From an uncultured Bacteroidota bacterium (GTDB lineage: Bacteria; Bacteroidota; Bacteroidia; UBA4408): a DNA stretch of 35,537 nt. Numbering within the stretch: position 1 is the first letter of the stretch; each line of letters begins with the position of its first letter. The position numbers and the translations under genes are program-made. Under the pieces are notes generated by a model. The model was not told where the DNA came from. It did no database searches and saw nothing but the letters and a program-made list of their open reading frames with translations. Where the stretch lies: contig CAIMMJ010000042.1 in NCBI GenBank assembly GCA_903842515.1, forward strand, positions 1-35,537, read 5' to 3'. Positions 2,537 through 35,537 of the stretch are shown here, one piece after another.

Positions 2537-2893
2537 TTATTTCTGTTGTATATCTTTTAACACAGTCTTTACGTCTTCGTAATTTACAGGTAAATGTCTT
2601 GTTGCTATGTCCCAAATAATTTCATAATCAATACCAAAATACTCATGGCTAATTCTGTTTCTTAAACGGTACATTTCTTCCCAAGGAATTGAAGGGTATT
2701 TGTCTTTTATGTTATTGGGCAAGTTTTTAGTTGCCTCACCTATAATTTCAAAATTACGTATAACTGCGTCAACTGTTTTATAGTCCCACTTAAAGTGTTG
2801 AAAGTCAAGACCACCAATATATTCTTTCACCCTTTCCATCGAAAGAATAATGTCTGATAAGTATAAAATGGGATCTCTGTCGCTTGGTTTCAA
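2537..2893 (-). CDS. hepT: HepT (DUF86/HEPN) toxin of a type VII toxin-antitoxin pair
   Basis: 118 aa carrying the HEPN R-x4-H-x-Y motif (RNRISHEY). It overlaps the upstream nucleotidyltransferase gene by 4 nt (ATGA). Confidence 0.85.
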   Translation of the reverse strand: MKPSDRDPILYLSDIILSMERVKEYIGGLDFQHFKWDYKTVDAVIRNFEIIGEATKNLPNNIKDKYPSIPWEEMYRLRNRISHEYFGIDYEIIWDIATRHLPVNYEDVKTVLKDIQQK

Positions 2894-8587: not shown

Positions 8588-10528
8588 TTAAGCTAGTTTT
8601 TTATTCTCTTCCACTTCCAATGCAATATTTTCCCAATTTTTATATTCTTGTTCCAATTTAGATTTAAGTTGTTGGTAATTGGCAAAAAACAATTCATTGC
8701 TAGAATTTTCTAAAAACGAAGGCAAAGACATTTCTTGATCCAACAGTTTAATTTTATTCTCTATTGCGGCAATTTCTTCTTCTGTTCTTTTTAGTTTATT
8801 CTCTAATCTTTTTATCTCTTTCGCCTCTTCTTTTCTCTCGTTGTATGATTTAGTATTTTGCACTTCAACTTTAACTTCACCTGATTTCTTATCTTTTTGC
8901 TTTGCTAAATCATCAAGTGTGGATAAATTTTTATCTTTTAAAAAATCATAAATATCTCCTAAATATGGTTTTATTTTTCCCTGATTAAATTCAAATATTT
9001 TATCTGTTAGCTCGTGTAAAAAATTTCTATCGTGTGATACAATTATTATCGTACCGTTAAAATTTTTCAAGGCTTCTTTCAACATGTCTTTCGATTTCAT
9101 GTCGAGGTGATTGGTGGGCTCGTCTAAAATTAGAACGTTGTGTGGTTCTAATAAAAGCTTACACATGGCCAGTCTAGATTTTTCTCCTCCACTTAATACT
9201 TTTACTTTTTTTTCTACTTCATCGCCACCAAATAAAAATGAACCCAACAAACTTCTTACTTGTTTTCTAATTTCCCCTTCTGCAACATCATCTATTGTTG
9301 CAAAAATTGTTTTTTCCTCATCCAGCATTTCAGCTTGGTTTTGTGCATAGTAACCCACCTTTACCTGATGCCCTAAAAATATGGACCCTTGAGCTTCTAA
9401 ATTATTGGTTAGAATTTTTACAAGCGTACTTTTCCCTTGACCATTTTTCCCTACAAATGCAACTTTATCTCCACGTTCTATTTCTAAATCAATTCCGTTT
9501 AGAACCAATTTGTCGCCATAACTTTTTTTTATGTTTTCGCACCTAAGGCTAACCTTTCCGCTATGAGGAGCCGGGGGAAATTTAAAACGAATGGCTGCGT
9601 TTTCTGTGTCGTCTAATTCTACAATATCTAGGCGGTCTAATTTTTTTATTAAGCTTTGTGCAAAGGCAGCCTTACTTGCTTTTGCTCTGTATTTATTTAT
9701 TAAGGCTTCTGTTTGCTCTATGTATTTTTCTTGGTTTTTTTGTTCGTTCTTTTGTTGCTCAATTCTCTCTTGCCTTAGCTGTACAAACTTAGAATAGTTT
9801 GCTTTGTAATCGTAAATTTTTCCGCTTACAATTTCTATGGATCGATTTGTTACCCTATCTAAAAAATCTCTGTCGTGCGATACCATCAACAAGCCACCTG
9901 TATAGCCCTGCAAGAAGTTTTCGAGCCATTGAATACTTTCTATATCTAAATGGTTAGTAGGCTCATCCAATAATATAAGAGAAGGTTTTTTTAGTAGAAT
10001 TTTTGCCAGCTCAATCCTCATTCTCCAGCCACCGCTAAATTCTAAAGTCTGTCTTTCAAAGTCTTCACGAGTGAATCCCAAACCCATTAAAATTTTTTCG
10101 GTTTCCGATGCAAAACTGTAACCTCCTATCATGCCAAATCGTTCGTTGGCATCGTTTAGTTGATTTAGAATGGATAAATATTCATCAGATTCGTAATCCT
10201 CTCTTGTAGTAACTAAATGCTCTAAATTTTTTATTTTTTGTTCCAGCTCATTTATTTCTTTAAAGGCCGAAACGGCTTCTTCAAAAACAGTTTTGCCGTC
10301 TACGTGCTTCATTTCCTGGGCTAAATAACCTATTGTAAATTCTTTGGGGAATGAAATTGTGCCGGTATAAGATTTGTTTTCTCCTGCAATAATTTTTAAG
10401 AGAGTAGATTTTCCTGCTCCGTTTTTTCCTACCAAACCAATTCTATCGGAACTTTGAACCAAAAAAGAAACATCGTCAAATAAATCCTTTCCACCAAAGG
10501 AAACACCTAAATTTTGTATTGAAATCAT
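8588..10528 (-). CDS. ABC-F family ATPase (two ABC cassettes, no TM domain, K/E-rich coiled-coil C-terminus; Uup/YheS-like)
   Basis: Two Walker A motifs (GKNGAGKST, GKNGQGKST), two LSGG signatures (FSGGWRMR, LSGGEKSR), two Walker B motifs (LLDEPTNHLD, ILDEPTNHLD), and an inter-domain linker. Confidence 0.9.
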   Translation of the reverse strand: MISIQNLGVSFGGKDLFDDVSFLVQSSDRIGLVGKNGAGKSTLLKIIAGENKSYTGTISFPKEFTIGYLAQEMKHVDGKTVFEEAVSAFKEINELEQKIKNLEHLVTTREDYESDEYLSILNQLNDANERFGMIGGYSFASETEKILMGLGFTREDFERQTLEFSGGWRMRIELAKILLKKPSLILLDEPTNHLDIESIQWLENFLQGYTGGLLMVSHDRDFLDRVTNRSIEIVSGKIYDYKANYSKFVQLRQERIEQQKNEQKNQEKYIEQTEALINKYRAKASKAAFAQSLIKKLDRLDIVELDDTENAAIRFKFPPAPHSGKVSLRCENIKKSYGDKLVLNGIDLEIERGDKVAFVGKNGQGKSTLVKILTNNLEAQGSIFLGHQVKVGYYAQNQAEMLDEEKTIFATIDDVAEGEIRKQVRSLLGSFLFGGDEVEKKVKVLSGGEKSRLAMCKLLLEPHNVLILDEPTNHLDMKSKDMLKEALKNFNGTIIIVSHDRNFLHELTDKIFEFNQGKIKPYLGDIYDFLKDKNLSTLDDLAKQKDKKSGEVKVEVQNTKSYNERKEEAKEIKRLENKLKRTEEEIAAIENKIKLLDQEMSLPSFLENSSNELFFANYQQLKSKLEQEYKNWENIALEVEENKKLA

Positions 10529-10630
10529 ACCACAAAAGTAAGTTGTATAATTTAAAAGAAGAATTAAATAATTTTAATATCGGATAAATATATTTTGAGG
10601 TTTTAACGATTTTAATAAAAAGATGTATAT

Positions 10631-11617
10631 TTGGGGGTGGAATGGAAAACAAACAACTATAATTTTGATGGCTTAGAAGTTTATTTAAATAGAATTCAAG
10701 AAAAAAAGATTCTATTAGATAAGCACAGGCCAATTCCTGCAATAGCGCTAAAAAAAATAAAAGAAAGTTTATCGCTAGAATGGACATATAACTCTAATAG
10801 CATAGAGGGCAATACACTTACACTAAGAGAAACCAAAATGGTTATTGAAGAAGGGTTTACGATAAAAGGTAAATCTCTTAGAGAACACTTTGAAGCAGTG
10901 AATCACCAAGAAGCAATAGAATATGTAGAACAATTAACAAATGAAAAATACCAGCTAAAAAGTAAAGATATTTTAGAAGTCCATTCCTTAGTTTTAAACA
11001 AAATTGAAAAAGATTTCGCAGGCAGATTTAGAACATCAGGAGTTAGAATTTCGGGGGCAAATTTTGTTCCACCAAATGCACTAAAGGTTTCTTTATTAAT
11101 TGACGAATTAATAGAATGGGTAAACAAAGAGTCTAAAAAATTGCATCCAATAATTAGAGCAACTATCTTTCACCACAGGTTTGTGCATATTCACCCATTC
11201 TTTGATGGAAATGGCAGAACAGTAAGGCTAGTTTTTAATTTATTGTTGATGAAAGAAGGTTATCCGCCTGCAATTATTTTAAAAACCGATAGAAAAAAAT
11301 ACTACGATGCATTAAACAAAGCAAACAATGGAGATTACTCAAAATTGCTTTTACTGGTTATTCAGGCAGTAGAAAGAAGCTTAGATATTTACTGTAGTAG
11401 TTTAGATAATACCTACGATAATTATATGCCAATACAAAACATTGTAGAAGAGTTGGATGTTCCGTATGGGCAAGAATACATCAGTCTTTTAGCGAGAACA
11501 GGAAAAATTGATGCTTTTAAAGAAGGAAGAAATTGGCTTACTTCAAAAGAAGCTGTTTTTAATTATATGAACAAACGTCCTAAAAAAAGAAGAAGCAAGT
11601 TTGACGTAATAAAATAA
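10631..11617 (+). CDS. Fic-domain protein (class II, intramolecular inhibitory helix) with a C-terminal HTH-like tail
   Basis: Fic motif HPFFDGNGRTVR. An N-terminal inhibitory (S/T)xxxE(G/N) motif is present as SNSIEG. The start is uncertain (TTG 10631 or GTG 10637; no early ATG). Confidence 0.85.
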   Translation: MGVEWKTNNYNFDGLEVYLNRIQEKKILLDKHRPIPAIALKKIKESLSLEWTYNSNSIEGNTLTLRETKMVIEEGFTIKGKSLREHFEAVNHQEAIEYVEQLTNEKYQLKSKDILEVHSLVLNKIEKDFAGRFRTSGVRISGANFVPPNALKVSLLIDELIEWVNKESKKLHPIIRATIFHHRFVHIHPFFDGNGRTVRLVFNLLLMKEGYPPAIILKTDRKKYYDALNKANNGDYSKLLLLVIQAVERSLDIYCSSLDNTYDNYMPIQNIVEELDVPYGQEYISLLARTGKIDAFKEGRNWLTSKEAVFNYMNKRPKKRRSKFDVIK

Positions 11618-11767
11618 ACTTATTTTAAACTCAATAATAAATCTTAAAGTAGGAGAAATACTAGAGGGATAAAAATGCAATACTCTAAAAATAGTATAAA
11701 TTTAATCTCAAGTGATTATAAATACAATAGTAGCGTAGCTTGAAGGTATTTTATTCAATTTAATAAA

Positions 11768-13873
11768 CTACTTTCTTTTTACTTTTAAAAGCAAAGAATT
11801 ACCAATAACTATTACATCGCTAAAGGCCATGGAAAAAGCTGCAAGCATTGGGCTTATACCTCCACCTGCAGCAATAGGAATTGCAACAATGTTGTATAAA
11901 AATGCCCAAAATAAATTTTGTTTTATGGTATTGTAGCTAAGCATAGAAAGTTCAAAAGCTTCTTCTATTCCCTTTAATTTGTTGTTCTTTAGCACAACCA
12001 CTTGTGCTGAATTAATAGCCGAGGCGTTTGCATCGGAAAGAGAAATGCCTACGTTAGCTAAAGATAAGGCCGGAGCATCGTTAATTCCATCTCCAATCAT
12101 AGCAACGTTGGCGGATGTACGAAGTTTTTGTATTTCTATTAATTTTTGTTCGGGTTTTGTTTCATAGTAAACTTCATCAAAATTATATTTTACAGCAAAA
12201 CTTTCTACCCTATTTTTTTTGTCACCACTCATCAAAACAACTTTTTTGTTTTTGCTTTTTAAGTAAGTCAACATTTCTTCAATACCTTCTCTTGTTTGGT
12301 CTTCTATAAAAAGTGTTGCAATTAATTCTTGGTTTTTATACAGACTTACTACTTTAAATAATTCAGAATCTTCTCCTGCAATGAGCTTGTAAATAGTTGA
12401 TTCAAAATTTGCCTCCACACCTAAGCCAGCAAACTCTTTGTAATCGTCTATTTTTAATATACTACAAGTAGATTCTAATTCTTGCTTTAGCGAAATTGCG
12501 ATGGGATGACTAGAGAAACTTTCTAAGGTATAAATGATGTTTTTTACAAATTGTTCATCCTGCTTTTCATCAATAGAAATCTTGTTTAATTTAAATTTTC
12601 CTGTTGTGAGTGTTCCTGTTTTGTCAAAAACAACAGTATCAATTTTTGCTAATGCCTCTAATGTATTTCCGCCTTTTATTAGCAATCCTTTTTTTGTTGC
12701 CAAACCCACTCCAACCATAACAGCAGTAGGCGTTGCCAAACCCATTGCACAGGGGCAAGAAATAACCAAAACCGCTATGCTTCTCAAAAAAGATTCAATT
12801 AAACTATGGGTGATAAAATAATTGATTGGAAATGCTATGATAGAAATTGCAACAACACCCAATACAAAATATCCGCTTACTACATCGCCTATTTTTTGAA
12901 TCTCTGGCTTTGAACTATTGGCATCTTTTACCAATTTTATTATTCCTGAAAGCACTGTTTTGTCTCCTTTTGTTTCTGCTCTTAATTTTAGGGTACCACT
13001 TTGTAAAATTGTACCACCAAAAACTTTGCTTCCAAGCGATTTATCAAGAGGGAAAGATTCTCCAGAAATCATTGATTCATCCACTGTACCACTTCCTTCA
13101 TACACTTCTCCATCGGCAGGAATTTTATCTCCGGACGGAACTAATAATAAGTCGAATTTATTTACTTCGTCAATGCTAATTTCGTTGATTATTTCTCTTC
13201 CAAATTGAAGCGAAATTCTTTTTGCTGTTTTAGGTAATTGTCCAACTAAATCTTTTAGAGAATTTGTTGTCTCAAAAACTGCTTTTTGCTCAATAAGCTG
13301 CCCTAGCAATACAAAACAAACAATGGATGATGCTGTTTCAAAAAATAATTTATGATGCAAATGTGGGTCATCAAAAAAATAAATCATCGAAAACAAACTG
13401 TAGAAAAAAGCCGAAGATGAACCAATTAATATTAAAACGTCCATATTGGGATGTTTCATTTTTAGAGAAGAAACAGCACTTCTTCCAAAATGTATTACAC
13501 CCAAAGAAAAAACTGGAAATGATAAAAAGAGTTGAAAAAAAGAATTTTCAAGAAAAGAAATTCCAGTAAAAAAATGTCCAAACAACAAAGGTGTTGTAAG
13601 AATGAGAGAAAAAATAAATTTTTGAGTAATTGTAATTTCTTTTTTTAAATTTTTGGCATCTTGAACTTTGTATCCGAGCTTATTAATTCCAGTAATAATA
13701 GATTCTAATTTCTGTTGTTCTACCTCCTCAAAAACAACTTCCCCCGTTAGGAATTCTACACGAGGATTTTGTACTTGCTCTTTTATTAAAAAATTGGAAA
13801 CTGTTTTTGCACAATCCATGCAAGTCATTCCTGTAACTTTTAGTACTTGTGTTTTTCTTTCTTCTCTTTCCAT
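11768..13873 (-). CDS. copA: Heavy-metal (Cu+/Ag+-type) translocating P1B-type ATPase
   Basis: N-terminal HMA domain GMTCMDCAKTV, CPC transmembrane metal site (SCPCAMGLATP), DKTGTLT phosphorylation site, SSHPIA and GDGINDAP motifs. Confidence 0.9.
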   Translation of the reverse strand: MEREERKTQVLKVTGMTCMDCAKTVSNFLIKEQVQNPRVEFLTGEVVFEEVEQQKLESIITGINKLGYKVQDAKNLKKEITITQKFIFSLILTTPLLFGHFFTGISFLENSFFQLFLSFPVFSLGVIHFGRSAVSSLKMKHPNMDVLILIGSSSAFFYSLFSMIYFFDDPHLHHKLFFETASSIVCFVLLGQLIEQKAVFETTNSLKDLVGQLPKTAKRISLQFGREIINEISIDEVNKFDLLLVPSGDKIPADGEVYEGSGTVDESMISGESFPLDKSLGSKVFGGTILQSGTLKLRAETKGDKTVLSGIIKLVKDANSSKPEIQKIGDVVSGYFVLGVVAISIIAFPINYFITHSLIESFLRSIAVLVISCPCAMGLATPTAVMVGVGLATKKGLLIKGGNTLEALAKIDTVVFDKTGTLTTGKFKLNKISIDEKQDEQFVKNIIYTLESFSSHPIAISLKQELESTCSILKIDDYKEFAGLGVEANFESTIYKLIAGEDSELFKVVSLYKNQELIATLFIEDQTREGIEEMLTYLKSKNKKVVLMSGDKKNRVESFAVKYNFDEVYYETKPEQKLIEIQKLRTSANVAMIGDGINDAPALSLANVGISLSDANASAINSAQVVVLKNNKLKGIEEAFELSMLSYNTIKQNLFWAFLYNIVAIPIAAGGGISPMLAAFSMAFSDVIVIGNSLLLKVKRK

Positions 13874-28885: not shown

Positions 28886-30088
28886 ATGCAGAAACCAAGT
28901 TTTCACAAAGAAGAGCTAGAACGTTTAAATAGCTTAAGGTCATATTTAGTTTTAGACAGTGAATCAGATAAAGAAATAGATTGTCTTACAGAACTTGCAT
29001 CTGAAATTTGTGAAACGCCAATTTCATTGGTTAGTTTGGTGGATAGTGACAGGCAGTGGTTTAAATCTAAAGTAGGTCTGCAGGCAAGCGAAACAAGCAG
29101 AGATATAGCATTTTGTGCACACGCAATCGTCCAATCCGAAGAAATGTTTATCATTGAAGATGCCACAAAAGATGAACGTTTTTTTGACAATCCTTTGGTT
29201 GTAAATGCACCATTAGTAATATTCTATGCGGGAGTTGTATTAAAAAGCGATACAAATTATCCATTAGGAACGCTGTGTGTTATTGACAATCAACCGCGAA
29301 AATTAAATGATAAACAAATTAGAGCACTTAAAACCATTGCAAGGCAAATAATGAACTTGCTTAATTACAAAAAAGTGTTGCGTTTGGGGGAGGAATTGAG
29401 ACTTCAATTGGCGCAAAAGAATCAAGAACTAGAAAGTTTTGCATCAATTGCAGCACACGATTTAAAATCTCCGCTCATAAACATTATGAGTGTTGCAAAT
29501 TTATTTTCTAAAACATACGAATTACAATTAGACTCTAAAGGTAGTGTTATGTTAGACTTAATTGAAAAGTCAGCTAAGCGACTTTCTTTAATGATTGATG
29601 GGTTATTGCAGTTTTCAAAAATTGATGGCATGAGTTTATTACTAAAATCTAAAGTAACCTTAAGCGAAACAATAACCGAACTCGCAGCATTGATTGGTAA
29701 CAATAACAATTTAAAAATTTTGCTGTACTCAGATTTAACAACTATTGAAACATATCCTATACTACTTGATCAAATTCTGATGAATTTATTTTCAAATTCA
29801 CTAAAATATAACCACACAAAAATAGCAGAAATTGAACTTTATGTTTCCGAGAATCCCAGCCATTATTTATTTATAGTTAAAGACAATGGCCCAGGAATAG
29901 ATAAGAAATACCAAGGCGCTATTTTTAATTTATTTCAGACCGCTACCAATAAAGATCAATTTGGCAATAAAGGAAATGGCATAGGCTTGGCTCTAGTAAA
30001 GAAAATTATAGAAAAACTTGGAGGCAAAATTTATGTAGAATCTGAATTAGGACATGGAGCTGAGTTTCATTTTTCCATTTCTAAATAG
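28886..30088 (+). CDS. Soluble GAF-domain sensor histidine kinase (GAF-HisKA-HATPase)
   Basis: N-terminal GAF domain (ELASEICETPISLVSLVDSDRQWFKS...FYAGVVL...LGTLCVID), H-box FASIAAHDLKSPL (His191), N box LMNLFSNSLKY, G boxes DNGPGID and GNGIGLALVKKIIE. No TM segments. Confidence 0.9.
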   Translation: MQKPSFHKEELERLNSLRSYLVLDSESDKEIDCLTELASEICETPISLVSLVDSDRQWFKSKVGLQASETSRDIAFCAHAIVQSEEMFIIEDATKDERFFDNPLVVNAPLVIFYAGVVLKSDTNYPLGTLCVIDNQPRKLNDKQIRALKTIARQIMNLLNYKKVLRLGEELRLQLAQKNQELESFASIAAHDLKSPLINIMSVANLFSKTYELQLDSKGSVMLDLIEKSAKRLSLMIDGLLQFSKIDGMSLLLKSKVTLSETITELAALIGNNNNLKILLYSDLTTIETYPILLDQILMNLFSNSLKYNHTKIAEIELYVSENPSHYLFIVKDNGPGIDKKYQGAIFNLFQTATNKDQFGNKGNGIGLALVKKIIEKLGGKIYVESELGHGAEFHFSISK

Positions 30089-30452
30089 TTGAACCTCAAA
30101 TTCTCGTAAGCCTAATAAAATTAATCGATTTGAATGAAAATATAGGATTTAAACCTACCGTTTTCTTTTGTATAATATTAAAAACATGGCATTTATTCGG
30201 AGCGAAAAACGGCCTCATGAATACCTTAATGAATAAATTAAATGATGAATAAAAAGTAAGGCAGGTTTGGGCAGCTTCCCAATATAAAAATTCTATAAAT
30301 GACTTTTTGAGGTTGTACTAATAGAATAAAAGTGAGTACTCAAATAATTTTATTCAATTGAACTAAAACAAAATTTACAATACGGCAAGCAAAGAAAGAG
30401 ATGGGTGGCACATTGCATAAAAAGAAATTAAACTTATGTTTTACCTTTCTGT

Positions 30453-30481
30453 TTTGATAAAATTTGTTTTTTGTATGTTTG
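30453..30481 (+). promoter_or_regulatory. Candidate promoter for the H-NOX operon (TTTG ... TAnnTTTG)
   Basis: TATGTTTG at 30474-30481, 20 nt upstream of the ATG. TTTG at 30453-30456 gives a 17-nt spacer, which is shorter than the 19-21 nt consensus I recall. This is a motif match only. Confidence 0.25.
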
Positions 30482-30501
30482 TGTTATAAAAAACAAAATA
30501 T

Positions 30502-31047
30502 ATGTACGGTTTAGTAAATAAAGCAATTCAAGATTTAGTGTGCGAAAAGTTTGGAGAAGATAAATGGCTTGAAATAAAAAAAATGTCAAATTTTGAAGAC
30601 GATTTTTTTATAGGTCTGCAATCCTACCCGGATTCATTGACCTATGAATTGGTTAAAAATTCATCAAAAGTTTTAGGGGCAGAGTCCTCTGTAATAATGG
30701 AAGCTTTTGGAGAATATTGGATTTTATTTACCGCTAAAGAAGGTTATGGCGAAATGTTAGATTTGGCAGGAGATAGCTTAGCAGAATTTTTAAATAATTT
30801 AGATATGCTTCACAACAGGGTAAACAACATTATGCCCGAGTTAGTAGCGCCTCAATTTTCAACCCGAAATGAAACTACCAATTCAATAGAGTTGGAGTAC
30901 AGATCAAAACGACAAGGAATGGCCCCAATGGTGGTAGGGCTTTTGAGAGGTTTGGGCATAAGATTTAATAAAGAAAATATGAAAATTGAACATATTCAAC
31001 AAAAAAACGACGTAAATGATTGTGATGTTTTTAAAATTGAGTGGTAA
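30502..31047 (+). CDS. hnoX: Stand-alone H-NOX (haem nitric oxide/oxygen-binding, HNOB) sensor protein, sGC/Nostoc type
   Basis: MYGLVNKAIQDLV N-terminus, proximal His104 in LDMLHNRV, Y-x-S-x-R triad as YRSKR (133-137), and a C-terminal IEHIQQKNDVNDCDVFKIEW resembling the end of the sGC beta1 H-NOX domain. Confidence 0.9.
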   Translation: MYGLVNKAIQDLVCEKFGEDKWLEIKKMSNFEDDFFIGLQSYPDSLTYELVKNSSKVLGAESSVIMEAFGEYWILFTAKEGYGEMLDLAGDSLAEFLNNLDMLHNRVNNIMPELVAPQFSTRNETTNSIELEYRSKRQGMAPMVVGLLRGLGIRFNKENMKIEHIQQKNDVNDCDVFKIEW

Positions 31048-31053
31048 AGTTTA

Positions 31054-33432
31054 ATGGAAAAACCTACTACCCCAATTAATGAGCAAAACAGGTTAGGTGC
31101 ACTAAATTCTTATGAAATATTAGATACACTAGAAGAAAAAGAGTACAATGATATTATTGCTCTTGCAAGTCAAATTTGTGGAACCAACATTTCAATTATC
31201 AGCTTTATTGATGAATACAGACAATGGTTTAAAGCAAGTCTTGGATTAAAGCTAAAACAAACTCCTCGCGAGATTTCTTTTTGCGGACATGCCATTAATA
31301 CCCCTAACGAAATTTTTGTTGTTTCTGACGCCAGGATTGATAAAAGATTTTCTGATAATCCTTTAGTAACAGGAGAACCACATATTGTTTTTTATGCCGG
31401 TGTACCGCTAGTTGATGACAATGGATTTGCATTAGGAACCATTTGCGTTTTAGATTCGGCCCCTAAAGAGCTCAACAAAAATCAAATAAATGCATTAAAA
31501 ATATTGAGCGAACAAGTAATACAGTTACTAAGCATTAAAAAAAAGAGTTTAGATTTAATTAAAGAAAAATTGCTTTTTCTTGATTCAATTAATTTTGCTT
31601 GTCCTTTTTTTCTGATAATTGATATTAATGAATTCATTATTGAATATGGAGATAATTATAAAATAACCTTTCCTGAAATTAAAAAAGGAACATTGTTTAG
31701 TGATTATTTTATTTTTGAATCAGGAATAAATATTACTACACTTTTAACCTCTTATACAAACGAAAATAAATTATTGTTTTACAAAAGTATAGATGGAACG
31801 CAAAGGTATAAGTGTTCTATAAAAAGATATAATGATGCTTTGTTGGTTCTTTCCGTTCCGGTTATAAATTCAATTTATTTGATTTCTAACTATAGACTAA
31901 AAATAAATAATTTCCCTAAACATGATTACATAGCTGAATTTTTATTTCTGCAGCAAGCTGCTGCAAAAGGATTGCAAGATTCAAAAATACTAAATGCTAA
32001 TTTAACTGAAAAAAATAAACTTCTAGAATTATCTAAAAAAGCATTAATCAACGCAAACGGCCGCCTAGAAGAACAGGTTAATGAACGCACAAAAAAAATT
32101 AAAAACTTAGCATTATTTCCTGAGCAAAATCCTAATCCTGTATTTGAATTAGATTATGAAAATAAAGAAATAAATTATTCAAATCCTGCAAGTAAATTAC
32201 TTTTTTATAAAGGCAGTGATTTTACTTTTGAAGAACTAATAAAAGTTTTATGTATTACAGAAGAAGCAGTTGTATCTAAAAAATCTCAAAAATTTGAAAT
32301 TGAAATTGAATCGGAAATTTATGAGCGGTACATCTTTTTTATTGGTAACTCAACTATTATAAGAGTTTACCTGCACAACATTACAGAAAATAAAAAGTAT
32401 CAAAATGAATTAAAAGAAAAAAATTTAAAGTTAGAAGACACATTAAATCAAGTTGTGAATCTTCAAGAAGATATAATAAAAAAAGAAAAAATGGCAACGC
32501 TAGGTTTGTTAATTTCAGGAATAGCTCACGAAATTAATACTCCATTAGGCGCAATAAAAGCTTCTAGCGATAACCTAATTTATTTAATAAAAAACGAGCT
32601 AATTAATAAAATTGCAGAATTAGATATTAACGATATCTTAGATAGCTTGGAATTATTTTTTTTACAAAAAAAAACAAATACAACTTTTAACAATTCAAGA
32701 GAAGAAAGAGCAGCTTCAAAAAAAATAGAACTAGAACTTAAAACTCAGTATAAAAACATTTCAAATACATTTTTTTACTCGAGAAAAATTCATGAATTAG
32801 GCTTTGAAAGTTTAGATCCTAGCCTTGAAAAGTTTTTAACGCACAAAAACAGTTTACAAGTTTTTACATTTGCAGTAAATCTGTTAACAATTATAAAGTC
32901 GGCCGATACAATTTCAATTGCAATAAATAAGGCTTCAAAAGTTGTATCGTCACTAAATAATTTTTCTCATGGAAATATTAATAAAGAAATTTCTGCATTT
33001 AATCTTAAAGGCAGTATAGATTCTGTTTTAACTCTCCTTTGGAATAAAATAAAGCAAGGTGCAGAAGTTATTAATAATGTTTCGGATGAAATTTATATCA
33101 CCACTAATCAAGAAGAATTGTCACAGGTATGGACAAATATAATTAACAATGCTTTGCAAGCCTCCAACAATAGCTGCAAAATAGAAATAAGTTATTTATT
33201 AGAGCAAGATTACCATATTATTACTATTAAAAACAATGGTCCTGAAATTCCTAAAGATATTATTGGCAATATTTTTGACGAGTTTTTTACCACAAAAAAG
33301 CGAGGCGAAGGAACGGGGCTTGGTTTAAATATTGTGAAAAAAATTATTGAAAAAAACAAAGGACTTATTGAGTGTTTCAGTAATTCATTAGAAACAAAAT
33401 TTGTTATTTCTTTACCCATAAAAAATGAATGA
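31054..33432 (+). CDS. Soluble multidomain sensor histidine kinase: GAF - HNOBA - coiled coil - PAS-like - HisKA - HATPase
   Basis: GAF domain (aa about 10-160), paralogous to the one in the 28886 kinase. HNOBA-like blocks CPFFLIIDINEFIIEYGDNYKITFPEIKKG and LSVPVINSIYLISNYRLKINNFPKHDYIAEFLFLQQ. PAS-like FPEQNPNPVFELDYENKEINYSNPAS. H-box GIAHEINTPLGAI (His492, codon 32527-32529). N box WTNIINNALQA. G boxes NNGPEIP and GEGTGLGLNIVKKIIE. Confidence 0.9.
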   Translation: MEKPTTPINEQNRLGALNSYEILDTLEEKEYNDIIALASQICGTNISIISFIDEYRQWFKASLGLKLKQTPREISFCGHAINTPNEIFVVSDARIDKRFSDNPLVTGEPHIVFYAGVPLVDDNGFALGTICVLDSAPKELNKNQINALKILSEQVIQLLSIKKKSLDLIKEKLLFLDSINFACPFFLIIDINEFIIEYGDNYKITFPEIKKGTLFSDYFIFESGINITTLLTSYTNENKLLFYKSIDGTQRYKCSIKRYNDALLVLSVPVINSIYLISNYRLKINNFPKHDYIAEFLFLQQAAAKGLQDSKILNANLTEKNKLLELSKKALINANGRLEEQVNERTKKIKNLALFPEQNPNPVFELDYENKEINYSNPASKLLFYKGSDFTFEELIKVLCITEEAVVSKKSQKFEIEIESEIYERYIFFIGNSTIIRVYLHNITENKKYQNELKEKNLKLEDTLNQVVNLQEDIIKKEKMATLGLLISGIAHEINTPLGAIKASSDNLIYLIKNELINKIAELDINDILDSLELFFLQKKTNTTFNNSREERAASKKIELELKTQYKNISNTFFYSRKIHELGFESLDPSLEKFLTHKNSLQVFTFAVNLLTIIKSADTISIAINKASKVVSSLNNFSHGNINKEISAFNLKGSIDSVLTLLWNKIKQGAEVINNVSDEIYITTNQEELSQVWTNIINNALQASNNSCKIEISYLLEQDYHIITIKNNGPEIPKDIIGNIFDEFFTTKKRGEGTGLGLNIVKKIIEKNKGLIECFSNSLETKFVISLPIKNE

Positions 33433-33823
33433 ATTAGCGATAATATCAGTAGATGATGAAAAAATAATTCTTGATTCTCTTAAAAGTCAATTTGAAATAA
33501 ATTTTCAAAATAAATTTCTTTTTGAATTTGCCGAAAGTGCAGAAGAGGCATTAGAGTTAATTGATGAATTAATTGAGGATGGTATTAAAATAATCTTAGT
33601 AATTTCTGATTATCAAATGCCAGGCATGAAAGGCGATGAGTTTGCATTAATTCTTCGCCGTAAGCTACCATCTACAAAAGTAATATTGCTTACAGGGCAA
33701 ATAAGCCAAGATGTAGCAATAGATTTCGTTAATAATAATATTTTTGTAAACATTGTGTCAAAACCTTGGTCTGAAAACGAATTAGTAACCCTTGTAAAAA
33801 ATATTGCCAACAATGTCGGCTAA
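33425..33823 (+). CDS. Single-domain response regulator (REC only) 1
   Basis: VDDE acidic pocket, phospho-acceptor Asp in LVISDYQMPGMKG, LLTGQ (Thr), SKPW (Lys). Its start overlaps the kinase stop by 8 nt (ATGAATGA). Confidence 0.85.
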   Translation: MNELAIISVDDEKIILDSLKSQFEINFQNKFLFEFAESAEEALELIDELIEDGIKIILVISDYQMPGMKGDEFALILRRKLPSTKVILLTGQISQDVAIDFVNNNIFVNIVSKPWSENELVTLVKNIANNVG

Positions 33824-34214
33824 AAAAGCTATATTAATAGTTGATGATGAATTTATTATCCTTGAGTCACTAAAAATTCAGTTAGAACGAATTATTGATA
33901 AAGAAATTATTTTAGAAGTAGCTTATTCAGGTGAAGAAGCTAATGCTATTATTGATGAGTTATACAGTAATGAAATAAATCTTTTACTCGTTATTTCTGA
34001 CTATAATTTAGATGATTGCAAAGGAACGGATGTACTTAGTTATTGTAATCAAAAATTTTCTGGTTCAAAAAAGATTATCCTATCTGGCCAATTAGATAAT
34101 GAAAATATAACTCATTTTAAAGAAACAATTGGATTGCATGACCTTTTTTTTAAGCCTTGGGGGTTTGACGAACTAAGAAAATCGATTGGTAAAATACCTG
34201 AATTATTTAATTAA
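33813..34214 (+). CDS. Single-domain response regulator (REC only) 2
   Basis: IVDDE, LLVISDYNLDDCKG, ILSGQ, FKPW. I prefer the ATG at 33813 (MSAKKAILIVDDE) over the TTG at 33804. It overlaps REC 1 by 11 nt. Confidence 0.8.
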   Translation: MSAKKAILIVDDEFIILESLKIQLERIIDKEIILEVAYSGEEANAIIDELYSNEINLLLVISDYNLDDCKGTDVLSYCNQKFSGSKKIILSGQLDNENITHFKETIGLHDLFFKPWGFDELRKSIGKIPELFN

Positions 34215-34256
34215 CAACCAAAAGAAACTACAAAACAATAAATTTTTATTGGCCAT

Positions 34257-35375
34257 TTATTGAAAACACAAGGATGGTTTTAAGGCAAGAAAGATCATAT
34301 CGTCTGTTTGATTTGTTTTTCCTTGCCATTTTCTAAGAAAAATATTTAACTGAACTTGTATTGATGTAAGGTCGTTATTCAAATATTCTGAATCTAAAAA
34401 TGATATCAACCGTTTTCTTGAAAGTTTTTTATCCAAAAAACCTCCAAATTGATCAGTAATGCCATCTGAATAAAAGTAAAAAACATCATCTTTATTGAAA
34501 TTTATTTTAATCAAAGAGCTATTTGATTCTTCATCACCTTTTAATCGAAGTTTAAGAAGTTTATTTTTATTGTTTAAAGAATCATAATATATGAATTCTC
34601 TTTTTGAGCCTACTATTTCAATTTCTGAGCTCCCTTTTTTTAGTTTAAAAATAGCTATATCAATAGAATCGTGTACTTCGTGCTCAGCAAAAATAGGACT
34701 CAACATTGATTTTAGTTCAATATAAAGTTGGTTAATAATTACTTTCAAATCAGTGTGTGTAGAGGTAACATTTTTTAATATGTTGTAGCAAATTATAGAA
34801 AGTAGTGCCCCAGGAACACCATGTCCTGTGCAATCGCCAACGGCAACAATTATTTCTTCATTTGCATTTCCTCCACCAATAAAACAAAAATCTCCAGAAA
34901 CAATATCTTTTGGTCTGTTTATATAAATATATTCTTTGAAAATGCTTTTGATTTCGTTTTCTTTTGCAAATAATTGTTTTTGTATTCTTTGTGCGTAAAC
35001 CAAAGAATCTGTAAGACTAACTATACTTTCAATAACATTTTCTAATTCTTCAGAAGAGAGAGGTTTGGATAAATACCCATTCATGTTTGTAGATAAAGCT
35101 CTATTGTAAACATTATCGTTGGTATTTGCAGACACATATATTATTGGAATATTAAGCGTTTCTTGAATTTTTTTGGCCGTTTCAATCCCGTCTATCTCTC
35201 CTTCCAATCTTATATCCATCAAAATTAAATCTGCATGGTTATCTTTAAAAAATTCTACCGCATCTATACCATTTTCAAAACAAGCAACTACATCATGGCC
35301 TAAATTTGTAACGTAATGCATGTGCAACTCTTGAAGTATTAACTCATCTTCTATTATAACTACTTTTTTTGTCAT
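34257..35375 (-). CDS. Response regulator fused to a PP2C/SpoIIE-family serine phosphatase (RsbU-like output)
   Basis: REC domain (IIEDE, LILMDIRLEGEIDG, SKPL), then PP2C motifs SGDFCFIGG, VAVGDCTGHGVPGALLS, FYFYSDGITDQFGG and QTDDMIFLAL. Confidence 0.9.
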   Translation of the reverse strand: MTKKVVIIEDELILQELHMHYVTNLGHDVVACFENGIDAVEFFKDNHADLILMDIRLEGEIDGIETAKKIQETLNIPIIYVSANTNDNVYNRALSTNMNGYLSKPLSSEELENVIESIVSLTDSLVYAQRIQKQLFAKENEIKSIFKEYIYINRPKDIVSGDFCFIGGGNANEEIIVAVGDCTGHGVPGALLSIICYNILKNVTSTHTDLKVIINQLYIELKSMLSPIFAEHEVHDSIDIAIFKLKKGSSEIEIVGSKREFIYYDSLNNKNKLLKLRLKGDEESNSSLIKINFNKDDVFYFYSDGITDQFGGFLDKKLSRKRLISFLDSEYLNNDLTSIQVQLNIFLRKWQGKTNQTDDMIFLALKPSLCFQ

Positions 35376-35459
35376 GTTCCTTAGAGCTTTTAATTGTACT
35401 TCTACTCTTTTATTTTTTTAGTTGATTTTTAGGTAATCGCATATATTCATTTCTGCCTT

Positions 35460-35537
35460 TTACAAATTTGTAAATGTAATCTGCAAAGTTAGTCCGGGTT
35501 TTTTTATATACTCAATAGACCCTTTAATTTGCCTAAC
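35460..35537 (-). CDS. 3' end of an upstream minus-strand ORF running off the window (possibly a kinase C-terminus; very tentative)
   Basis: The minus frame reads ...VRQIKGSIEYIKKPGLTLQITFTNL* with TAA at 35460-35462, 84 nt upstream of the REC-PP2C gene. Only 25 codons are visible. The G-x-I...G-x-T-x-x-I-x-F ending is loosely HATPase-like. Confidence 0.25.
   Translation of the reverse strand, partial: VRQIKGSIEYIKKPGLTLQITFTNL

Follow-up and report, generated by a model that had tools for sequence, protein, structure and literature searches.

A stretch of 35,537 nucleotides (nt) of contig CAIMMJ010000042.1 (positions 1 to 35,537) of an uncultured Bacteroidota bacterium (GenBank assembly GCA_903842515.1), analysed here as a whole and called the window, carries four tightly packed plus-strand genes that encode a stand-alone H-NOX protein, a soluble sensor histidine kinase and two response regulators consisting of a REC domain only, REC1 and REC2 (Table 1). 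Read directly, the H-NOX stop codon TAA (31045-31047) is followed by 6 nt and then the kinase ATG, and the kinase and REC1 genes overlap by the 8 nt ATGAATGA (33425-33432). REC1 and REC2 overlap by the 11 nt ATGTCGGCTAA (33813-33823), assuming the ATG as the start of REC2; an in-frame TTG at 33804 is an alternative start. A minus-strand open reading frame (ORF) for a response regulator with a SpoIIE-type PP2C phosphatase domain (REC-PP2C) converges on the cluster. The original prediction, made from the DNA letters, had given the same junctions and had interpreted the locus as the sensor half of animal soluble guanylate cyclase (sGC), split over two polypeptides and wired to a histidine kinase. 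We found this picture to hold for the folds and for the linkage of the genes. The predicted domains were all recovered, several of them through Pfam matches to HNOB, GAF, HATPase_c, Response_reg and, in part, HisKA, and HNOBA through a family profile and a structure model.

Sensor, kinase and regulator proteins of the cluster

The H-NOX protein matches Pfam HNOB (PF07700) over the whole profile (positions 1-163 of 163) with 165.3 bits against a cutoff of 25.5 (E 1.5e-48), and a PDB search returned the Nostoc Alr2278 structures at E 1e-51 and human sGC beta1 at E 1e-28. It shares 48% identity with Ns H-NOX (PDB 2O09/4IAH), the closest solved relative, which binds nitric oxide (NO) and CO (PMC2576301). 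The proximal His104 aligns with Ns His105 and the Tyr133-x-Ser135-x-Arg137 motif is present; these residues and Trp73 are invariant or nearly so among 120 H-NOX homologues. Met143, at what we take to be the position of the O2-binding distal Tyr140 of Tt (Thermoanaerobacter) H-NOX, is invariant in 120 of 120 homologues, and there is no distal Tyr. Judged from the sequence, this residue pattern is the signature of NO/CO-selective H-NOX proteins that bind no O2, and the protein probably binds haem and NO. We also considered a three-cysteine zinc/redox site of the Vibrio cholerae type and rejected it, because the protein contains only two cysteines, C14 and C174.

The partner kinase is divided by a full-length AlphaFold model (pLDDT 79) into a GAF domain (residues ~10-140), a linker helix (142-182), an HNOBA domain of PAS fold, a signalling helix, a second PAS domain, a DHp domain built from helix 1 (444-522) and helix 2 (600-638), and a C-terminal CA domain. 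The HNOBA domain, also called H-NOXA, is the part of the original prediction that a plain Pfam search did not recover, as PF07701 scores 17.4 bits on the full kinase, below its cutoff of 23.4, while the isolated segment reaches 24.1 bits over profile positions 126-195 only. Plain phmmer of the kinase against the PDB likewise reached no H-NOXA structure, and a family profile was needed. We built this profile from 36 sequences covering kinase residues 160-350 and ran it against all PDB sequences; the sole significant matches were 2P04 and 2P08 (E 2.6e-4), which are the H-NOXA domain of a Nostoc punctiforme (Np) signal-transduction histidine kinase (STHK). In addition, 35 of the 36 kinase relatives match Pfam HNOBA, with a best E of 1.7e-8.

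The same assignment was obtained from structure prediction. The AlphaFold model of the HNOBA segment has a pLDDT of 88.8, and its top 21 Foldseek matches in the PDB are all sGC alpha/beta PAS domains with coiled coil, Np STHK H-NOXA or the Manduca sGC PAS domain. The model superimposes on Np STHK H-NOXA with a TM score of 0.75-0.79 and a root mean square deviation of 1.9-2.1 Å, and the alignments to sGC subunits run over 152-177 columns, covering both the PAS domain and the coiled coil. Unrelated PAS domains (phytochromes, PpsR) enter the list only from E ~1e-3, two to three orders weaker. Because the profile, the 35 relatives and the AlphaFold/Foldseek comparison agree, we accept the HNOBA domain as confirmed at the level of sequence profile and modelled fold. 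In both AlphaFold models the signalling helix is continuous with HNOBA, as it is in sGC, and we propose HNOBA as the site at which H-NOX would dock in trans.

On either side of this unit, the kinase carries further domains. The N-terminal GAF belongs to the PA2771/4ZMU subfamily (E 3.5e-36 to the GAF of the diguanylate cyclase 4ZMU) and contains three cysteines, C42, C77 (in an F-C-x-H motif) and C131, each at least 90% conserved across the aligned kinases, which may form a redox, metal or ligand site. The second PAS-like domain opens with FPEQNPNPV, its NPNPV motif beginning at residue 359, and distant kinase homologues match PF08448 PAS_4 at this position.

The catalytic part contains the H-box GIAHEINTPLG, including the phospho-acceptor His492, which is invariant in the family. 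The Pfam HisKA match is partial (E 0.0019, profile positions 3-27 only) because a helical insert of ~70 residues (525-595; 32626-32838), modelled with confidence, splits the DHp helices. The CA domain scores 69.5 bits against HATPase_c (E 4e-19). Its G1 box (residues 724-733; 33223-33252) reads I-K-N-N-G-P-E-I-P where DxGxG is canonical. In a census of 114 family kinases the second Gly of DxGxG varies; the H, N, F and G2 boxes follow the canonical pattern and are conserved. From the residues involved, the Asn of the G1 box may alter nucleotide binding or specificity.

REC1 aligns with the acidic pair D10/D11, the acceptor D62, T90 and K113, and its best NCBIfam match is the REC domain of the nitric_RR_NosR family (nitric-oxide response regulator; 78.6 bits). 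REC2 is 36% identical to REC1 and keeps the acceptor Asp, Ser and Lys. The REC-PP2C matches Response_reg at 9e-22 (77.8 bits) and SpoIIE at 6e-12 (46.3 bits against a cutoff of 25), and its metal-binding motifs are intact (GDCTGHG, SDGITD and TDDM for DxxGHG, SDG and DD). The acidic pocket, acceptor Asp, Thr/Ser and Lys are retained in all three regulators. The best NCBIfam match of the phosphatase part is SiaA at 78.7 bits, far under the equivalog cutoff. The REC-PP2C is a candidate output of the network.

Table 1 Features of the H-NOX cluster and its surroundings in the window.
Feature	Position	Strand	Basis
Candidate Bacteroidota-type -7 promoter element, TATGTTTG	30474-30481	+	Read directly; ~20 nt 5' of the H-NOX ATG
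Stand-alone H-NOX haem sensor, 181 amino acids (aa)	30502-31047	+	Pfam HNOB, 165 bits
Soluble sensor histidine kinase, 792 aa (GAF, HNOBA, signalling helix, PAS, DHp, CA)	31054-33432	+	Domain matches and full-length AlphaFold model
GAF domain, PA2771/4ZMU subfamily, kinase residues 7-165	31072-31548	+	Pfam GAF, E 2.9e-11
HNOBA/H-NOXA PAS-fold domain, kinase residues 185-290	31606-31923	+	Family profile, Pfam, AlphaFold and Foldseek
Signalling helix (coiled coil), kinase residues 292-352	31927-32109	+	One helix in both AlphaFold models
Second PAS-like domain, kinase residues 355-442	32116-32379	+	PAS-type strand/helix order in model
DHp domain, kinase residues 444-638 (His492 at 32527-32529)	32383-32967	+	H-box and model
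GHKL ATPase (CA) domain, kinase residues 647-790	32992-33423	+	HATPase_c
REC1, REC-only response regulator, 132 aa	33425-33823	+	Response_reg, 1.1e-15
REC2, REC-only response regulator, 133 aa (ATG) or 136 aa (TTG at 33804)	33813-34214	+	Pfam Response_reg
REC-PP2C (SpoIIE-type) response-regulator phosphatase, 372 aa	34257-35375	-	Response_reg and SpoIIE
GAF-PAS-HWE/HisKA_2 histidine kinase, last 25 codons, runs off the window	35460-35537	-	Identical to the C-terminus of the kinase in the relative ELA547

Conservation of the cluster and a second, convergent operon

Homologues of the kinase number in the thousands, mostly from Bacteroidota metagenomes. We applied the HNOBA profile to a single genome from each GTDB species and obtained 80 loci. 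Of these, 78 carry a Bacteroidota label (Crocinitomicaceae, Flavobacteriales, Chitinophagaceae and unclassified); the other two, both TPA assemblies, carry the label Akkermansia. All but one of the titles are marked as metagenome-assembled genomes (MAGs; 79/80), the remaining locus, L032, being the assembly of an uncultured isolate. Lakes and rivers are the source of most of them. The adjacency of H-NOX and kinase, on which the original prediction relied, is kept in 67 of 68 assessable loci, with H-NOX immediately 5' of the kinase and gaps mostly between -10 and +9 nt. A REC-only gene lies 3' of the kinase in 62 of 67 loci, a single one in 42 of these 62. A search begun from H-NOX homologues gives the identical gene order. 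Since this order recurs across the species-level set, the arrangement is far beyond chance.

The loci fall into two grades. The first consists of three genes, one for H-NOX, one for a kinase that spans 820-1660 aa and has additional PAS/GAF domains, and one for a REC protein. The second, with 16 loci, has a kinase of 790-980 aa, two RECs and the REC-PP2C, which is confined to this subclade (16/80 loci); in most of its members the REC-PP2C gene lies directly upstream of H-NOX on the same strand, 3-60 nt away. The original prediction had listed the REC-PP2C as a neighbour of the cluster. It is present, and it is more than a neighbour, being conserved in the subclade and belonging in this genome to a second operon. 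A few family kinases of 530 aa have no GAF yet keep HNOBA, which makes HNOBA the constant partner of H-NOX.

Two side observations concern kinases of a relative and of the window itself. In the syntenic relative L091 (9553-11719) the kinase is called as two ORFs of 72 and 628 aa with no Pfam matches recorded, probably a frameshift, an assembly error or a pseudogene. Upstream of the H-NOX cluster, at 28886-30088 (+), the window encodes a kinase of 400 aa with GAF, HisKA and HATPase domains. Its GAF belongs to the 4ZMU-like subfamily, as does that of the H-NOX-linked kinase, and the two have an N-terminal NE..RL..L..Y motif and conserved Cys positions in common. We rejected the 400-aa kinase as a core member because, of all relatives, only the two closest, L008 and L009, have it beside the cluster.

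An exhaustive HNOBA profile search of 1.84 billion representative proteins returned 1,265 clusters at E <= 1e-3, 372 at E <= 1e-10 and 36 at E <= 1e-30, the closest tier comprising ~36 protein clusters at 50% identity. HNOBA lies near residue 160, behind a GAF, in this closest tier, and is N-terminal in nearly all distant matches. Among 81 distant HNOBA proteins, 54 carry HATPase_c, 46 HisKA, nine SpoIIE/PP2C, three GGDEF and one GAF. As sampled here, a histidine kinase is the commonest bacterial HNOBA architecture (54/81), and the GAF-HNOBA order marks the Bacteroidota clade. N-terminal HNOBA is fused straight to SpoIIE/PP2C in P0302, P0312, P0316, P0332, P0350, P0352, P0362 and P0376; because such fusions exist outside the clade (9/81), PP2C appears as a recurrent output of HNOBA signalling. 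Public annotation names the kinases of the family only as 'GAF domain-containing protein' or 'signal transduction histidine kinase', and the HNOBA link is therefore invisible in databases.

The surroundings of the REC-PP2C gene became visible by comparison with a close relative, the MAG 'Bacteroidota bacterium ELA547' (L008), which shares 94% DNA identity with 30442-35537, up to the last base of the window. The minus strand of L008 encodes, in this order, a FIST/FIST_C protein, a 705-aa GAF-PAS-HisKA_2/HWE kinase (in the region 9930-12573) and the REC-PP2C. Because the last 78 nt of the window match the L008 HWE kinase, the REC-PP2C gene in this genome ends a second, convergent sensor-kinase operon. 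The FIST gene itself sits outside the window and is known here from the relatives, where its product has NosP (NF041558) as the sole NCBIfam match, over the full length, at 88 bits against a cutoff of 450 and thus below equivalog level. In most REC-PP2C loci the H-NOX module is flanked by a FIST gene, an HWE-kinase gene or both, and their orientation varies. The PAS domain of the HWE kinase scores best against LOV blue-light kinases and has no flavin-binding Cys; we rejected a LOV photoreceptor, as the flavin-adduct Cys motif is absent (GKKPGSFLYG).

Regarding expression, the intergenic stretch 5' of H-NOX is 413 nt long and contains TATGTTTG, which resembles the Bacteroidetes promoter -7 consensus TAnnTTTG. 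By comparison with this consensus, it is a candidate -7 element of the H-NOX operon. A sigma-70 promoter scan gave 21 sites against 30.2 expected from shuffling, i.e. no enrichment, Bacteroidota promoters being outside the coverage of the tool. A terminator scan found no convincing plus-strand site, and an Rfam scan of 30000-35537 returned no match at E <= 0.1. The counterpart of 30089-30441 in L008 (2930-4912) is ~1.6 kb longer and otherwise aligns poorly, and this length difference between close relatives points to an insertion or deletion.

The remaining window is ordinary chromosome, encoding TatC, EPSP synthase, MetRS, RF, ribosomal proteins S2, S9 and L13, EF-Ts and a T9SS-tailed protein. 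Unrelated to the H-NOX cluster, a HepT-like ribonuclease toxin gene lies at 2537-2893 (-) and a Fic/DOC family gene at 10631-11617 (+). Scanned as a whole, the window encodes no cyclase, GGDEF/EAL/HD-GYP protein, sigma factor, STAS, anti-sigma or DNA-binding regulator, in line with the original prediction, which had seen no cyclic di-GMP (c-di-GMP) enzyme or DNA-binding regulator here.

Comparison with known nitric oxide sensing systems

The closest counterparts are the H-NOX/H-NOXA kinase operons of cyanobacteria, in which a stand-alone H-NOX gene is followed within a few nt by an HNOBA-bearing gene. The alr2278-alr2280 operon of Anabaena (Nostoc sp. PCC 7120) has been described (PMC12267927), and two reports place the Nostoc H-NOX in a 'histidine kinase operon' and give a solved H-NOXA structure (PMC2576301; PMC2828450). 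As the original prediction had stated, HNOBA does lie beside H-NOX in cyanobacteria: in Nostoc sp. CENA543 (L088) and on a metagenomic cyanobacterial contig (L089), H-NOX is followed after 11 nt by a gene with N-terminal HNOBA. A homologue search seeded with Np STHK H-NOXA had returned 13 short HNOBA proteins only and no full-length Nostoc kinases, and context was recovered for these two. The gene after H-NOX is an HNOBA-only ORF of 162 aa in L088 (8001-8489), and in L089 (8001-9417) an HNOBA ORF of 119 aa precedes a separate HisKA/HATPase ORF of 342 aa; these may be truncated or split kinases, or true stand-alone HNOBA proteins. The cyanobacterial HNOBA domains and that of the window are mutual best matches in both structure and sequence. 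The two cyanobacterial loci differ in that HNOBA is N-terminal without a GAF, and neither twin REC-only genes nor a REC-PP2C or FIST gene lies alongside. We know of no biochemical test of kinase regulation in either the cyanobacterial or the Bacteroidota H-NOX/HNOBA systems.

Animal sGC (alpha1/beta1) has the same succession of H-NOX, H-NOXA (PAS) and coiled-coil signalling helix. In contrast to sGC, the system in the window has H-NOX on a separate polypeptide and a histidine kinase as output; no class III nucleotide cyclase domain is present in the four proteins or the whole window, and the cluster encodes no sGC. In addition, sGC is an alpha/beta heterodimer, while the window kinase is probably a homodimer.

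The proteobacterial HnoX-HnoK systems (Shewanella oneidensis, Vibrio cholerae/harveyi HqsK and Silicibacter SiliH-NOX/SiliHK) also have an H-NOX gene adjoining a histidine kinase gene. To our knowledge, HnoK-type kinases of Proteobacteria are not annotated with HNOBA or GAF. Where the outputs of these systems have been characterised, they are c-di-GMP enzymes, transcription factors or Hpt/quorum-sensing relays, whereas the candidates in the window are REC-only proteins and the REC-PP2C. In the proteobacterial systems NO-bound H-NOX controls autophosphorylation, and one kinase feeds several response regulators (PMC4436077, PMC8738867, PMC8846402). In Silicibacter the kinase is inhibited by NO-bound H-NOX (PMC4436077).

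Two further systems resemble the neighbouring operon. As in NosP-NahK, a FIST/FIST_C gene lies in the relatives directly 5' of a histidine kinase gene, here beside the H-NOX module; the partner in L008 differs, being an HWE/HisKA_2 kinase with a GAF and a Cys-less LOV-like PAS instead of a hybrid kinase of the NahK type. A 2022 review records FIST genes in the vicinity of one H-NOX group and names neither HNOBA nor PP2C (PMC8738867). The REC-PP2C itself resembles regulators of partner switching (RsbY of Bacillus cereus, the PP2C SiaA of Pseudomonas) in combining a REC with a SpoIIE-type PP2C with intact motifs, and differs from them in that the window encodes no STAS/anti-sigma substrate near it and in its link to H-NOX, which is new.

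The degree of novelty was therefore overstated in the original prediction. An H-NOX gene beside an HNOBA kinase gene is long known from cyanobacteria, with crystal structures of both domains, and HNOBA kinases are common in sequence data. Full-text literature searches of incomplete coverage returned no paper joining H-NOX with PP2C and no experimental work on Bacteroidota H-NOX. What appears undescribed is the N-terminal GAF, the twin RECs, the PP2C output and the FIST linkage of the H-NOX/HNOBA-kinase module. Judged by its genes and domains, the locus is a cyanobacterial-type H-NOX/HNOBA-kinase module extended with a GAF, twin RECs, a REC-PP2C and a NosP-like neighbour.

Proposed signalling route and its alternatives

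We propose, with a probability of roughly 0.7, that the cluster is an NO-responsive two-component module that would work as follows. A promoter 5' of 30502 would yield a single transcript for H-NOX, the kinase, REC1 and REC2. The H-NOX protein would carry ferrous haem on His104, bind NO and possibly CO but not O2, and dock in trans on the HNOBA domain and adjoining signalling helix of the dimeric kinase, through an interface of the architecture that the animal NO receptor sGC uses in cis. The rearrangement of H-NOX induced by NO would reach the DHp domain by way of the signalling helix and the second PAS, altering the autophosphorylation of His492. The most likely effect is inhibition by NO-bound H-NOX, as in all H-NOX/kinase pairs that have been tested. 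Phosphate would be transferred to REC1 and REC2, and probably also to the REC-PP2C, which would turn the signal into Ser/Thr dephosphorylation of a target encoded outside the window. REC1 and REC2 may be competing acceptors, phosphate sinks or diffusible single-domain regulators. Further inputs would probably enter through the N-terminal GAF and, at the level of the REC-PP2C, through the operon of the NosP-like FIST protein and HWE kinase.

Several points weigh against this route. Regulation could have the opposite sign, because NO activates the output in sGC. Ordinary ATP-dependent autophosphorylation is not guaranteed, since the G1 box is without its adenine-contacting Asp, which is replaced by Asn in 111 of 114 family kinases (set P0001-P0120), including members without HNOBA. 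The REC-PP2C gene of the window belongs to the operon of the HWE kinase, separate from that of H-NOX, so that its product may be served by the HWE kinase only. It cannot be a universal output, since 64 of the 80 loci lack it, and no STAS or anti-sigma substrate for a PP2C is encoded in the window. Finally, the 88 bits of the FIST protein are to be set against the 450-bit cutoff of NosP.

These points bear most directly on how the two operons are connected. It is possible that two sensors, H-NOX with its HNOBA kinase and the NosP-like FIST protein with its HWE kinase, act as one hub and converge on a single REC-PP2C, so that NO, by itself or together with a second cue, would be read out as Ser/Thr dephosphorylation by partner switching instead of through c-di-GMP or transcription; we put this forward tentatively, at well under even odds. 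In an alternative that we consider unlikely, the two modules would be functionally separate, with the HNOBA kinase signalling to REC1 and REC2 only and the HWE kinase to the REC-PP2C only, as neighbours that respond to related cues. Such a separation would fit the position of the REC-PP2C gene on the opposite strand and 3' of another kinase gene in the window, L008 and L009 (of HWE type in L008), as well as the loci that lack a REC-PP2C or have one REC. HWE/HisKA_2 kinases typically partner single-domain or PhyR-like receivers, and the REC of the REC-PP2C scores 65 bits against a PhyR-family model. Against a separation speak most members of the subclade, which look like five-gene operons with the REC-PP2C gene 3-60 nt 5' of H-NOX on the same strand, and the restriction of the REC-PP2C to the kinases with two RECs.

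The identity of the cue allows another explanation, to which we assign a low probability: H-NOX would sense something other than NO (CO, O2 or, by a thiol/zinc switch without haem, the redox state), or the GAF would carry the primary signal with H-NOX as an accessory. Ns H-NOX binds CO as well as NO (PMC2576301), and V. cholerae H-NOX is reported to have a redox mode that does not depend on haem (PMC8738867). On the other side, the H-NOX homologues keep the proximal His and the Y-S-R motif unchanged, or nearly so, and have no Tyr in the distal pocket to bind O2, and the zinc site would need a third cysteine that this protein does not have. The three nearly invariant cysteines favour a primary role of the GAF, against which the GAF-less kinases of the family keep both H-NOX and HNOBA.

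We give very little credence to the kinase being a pseudokinase or non-standard nucleotide user, which would bind ATP poorly and serve the RECs chiefly as a phosphatase or scaffold, or use GTP, because the altered G1 box with its lost second Gly is common to a large selected kinase clade, members without HNOBA included, favouring a functional variant over decay, and it stands beside a strictly conserved H-box His and N, F and G2 boxes and a HATPase_c match of 69.5 bits.

Nearly all that is understood about H-NOX signalling comes from Proteobacteria, in which it leads to c-di-GMP, quorum sensing or transcription. The locus described here reveals a large uncharacterised H-NOX branch in freshwater Bacteroidota, represented by 80 species-level genomes, that keeps the sGC-type H-NOXA domain, and one subclade of this branch additionally has a regulator with a PP2C phosphatase and a NosP-like module. 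If the proposed NO-responsive route is true, it would represent a new output class for bacterial NO sensing, a readout by Ser/Thr dephosphorylation not being described for any H-NOX system. The split pair of soluble H-NOX and HNOBA would then be a tractable minimal model of the relay from H-NOX through PAS to coiled coil in animal sGC, and the system would be a hint that abundant lake Bacteroidota use NO as a cue.

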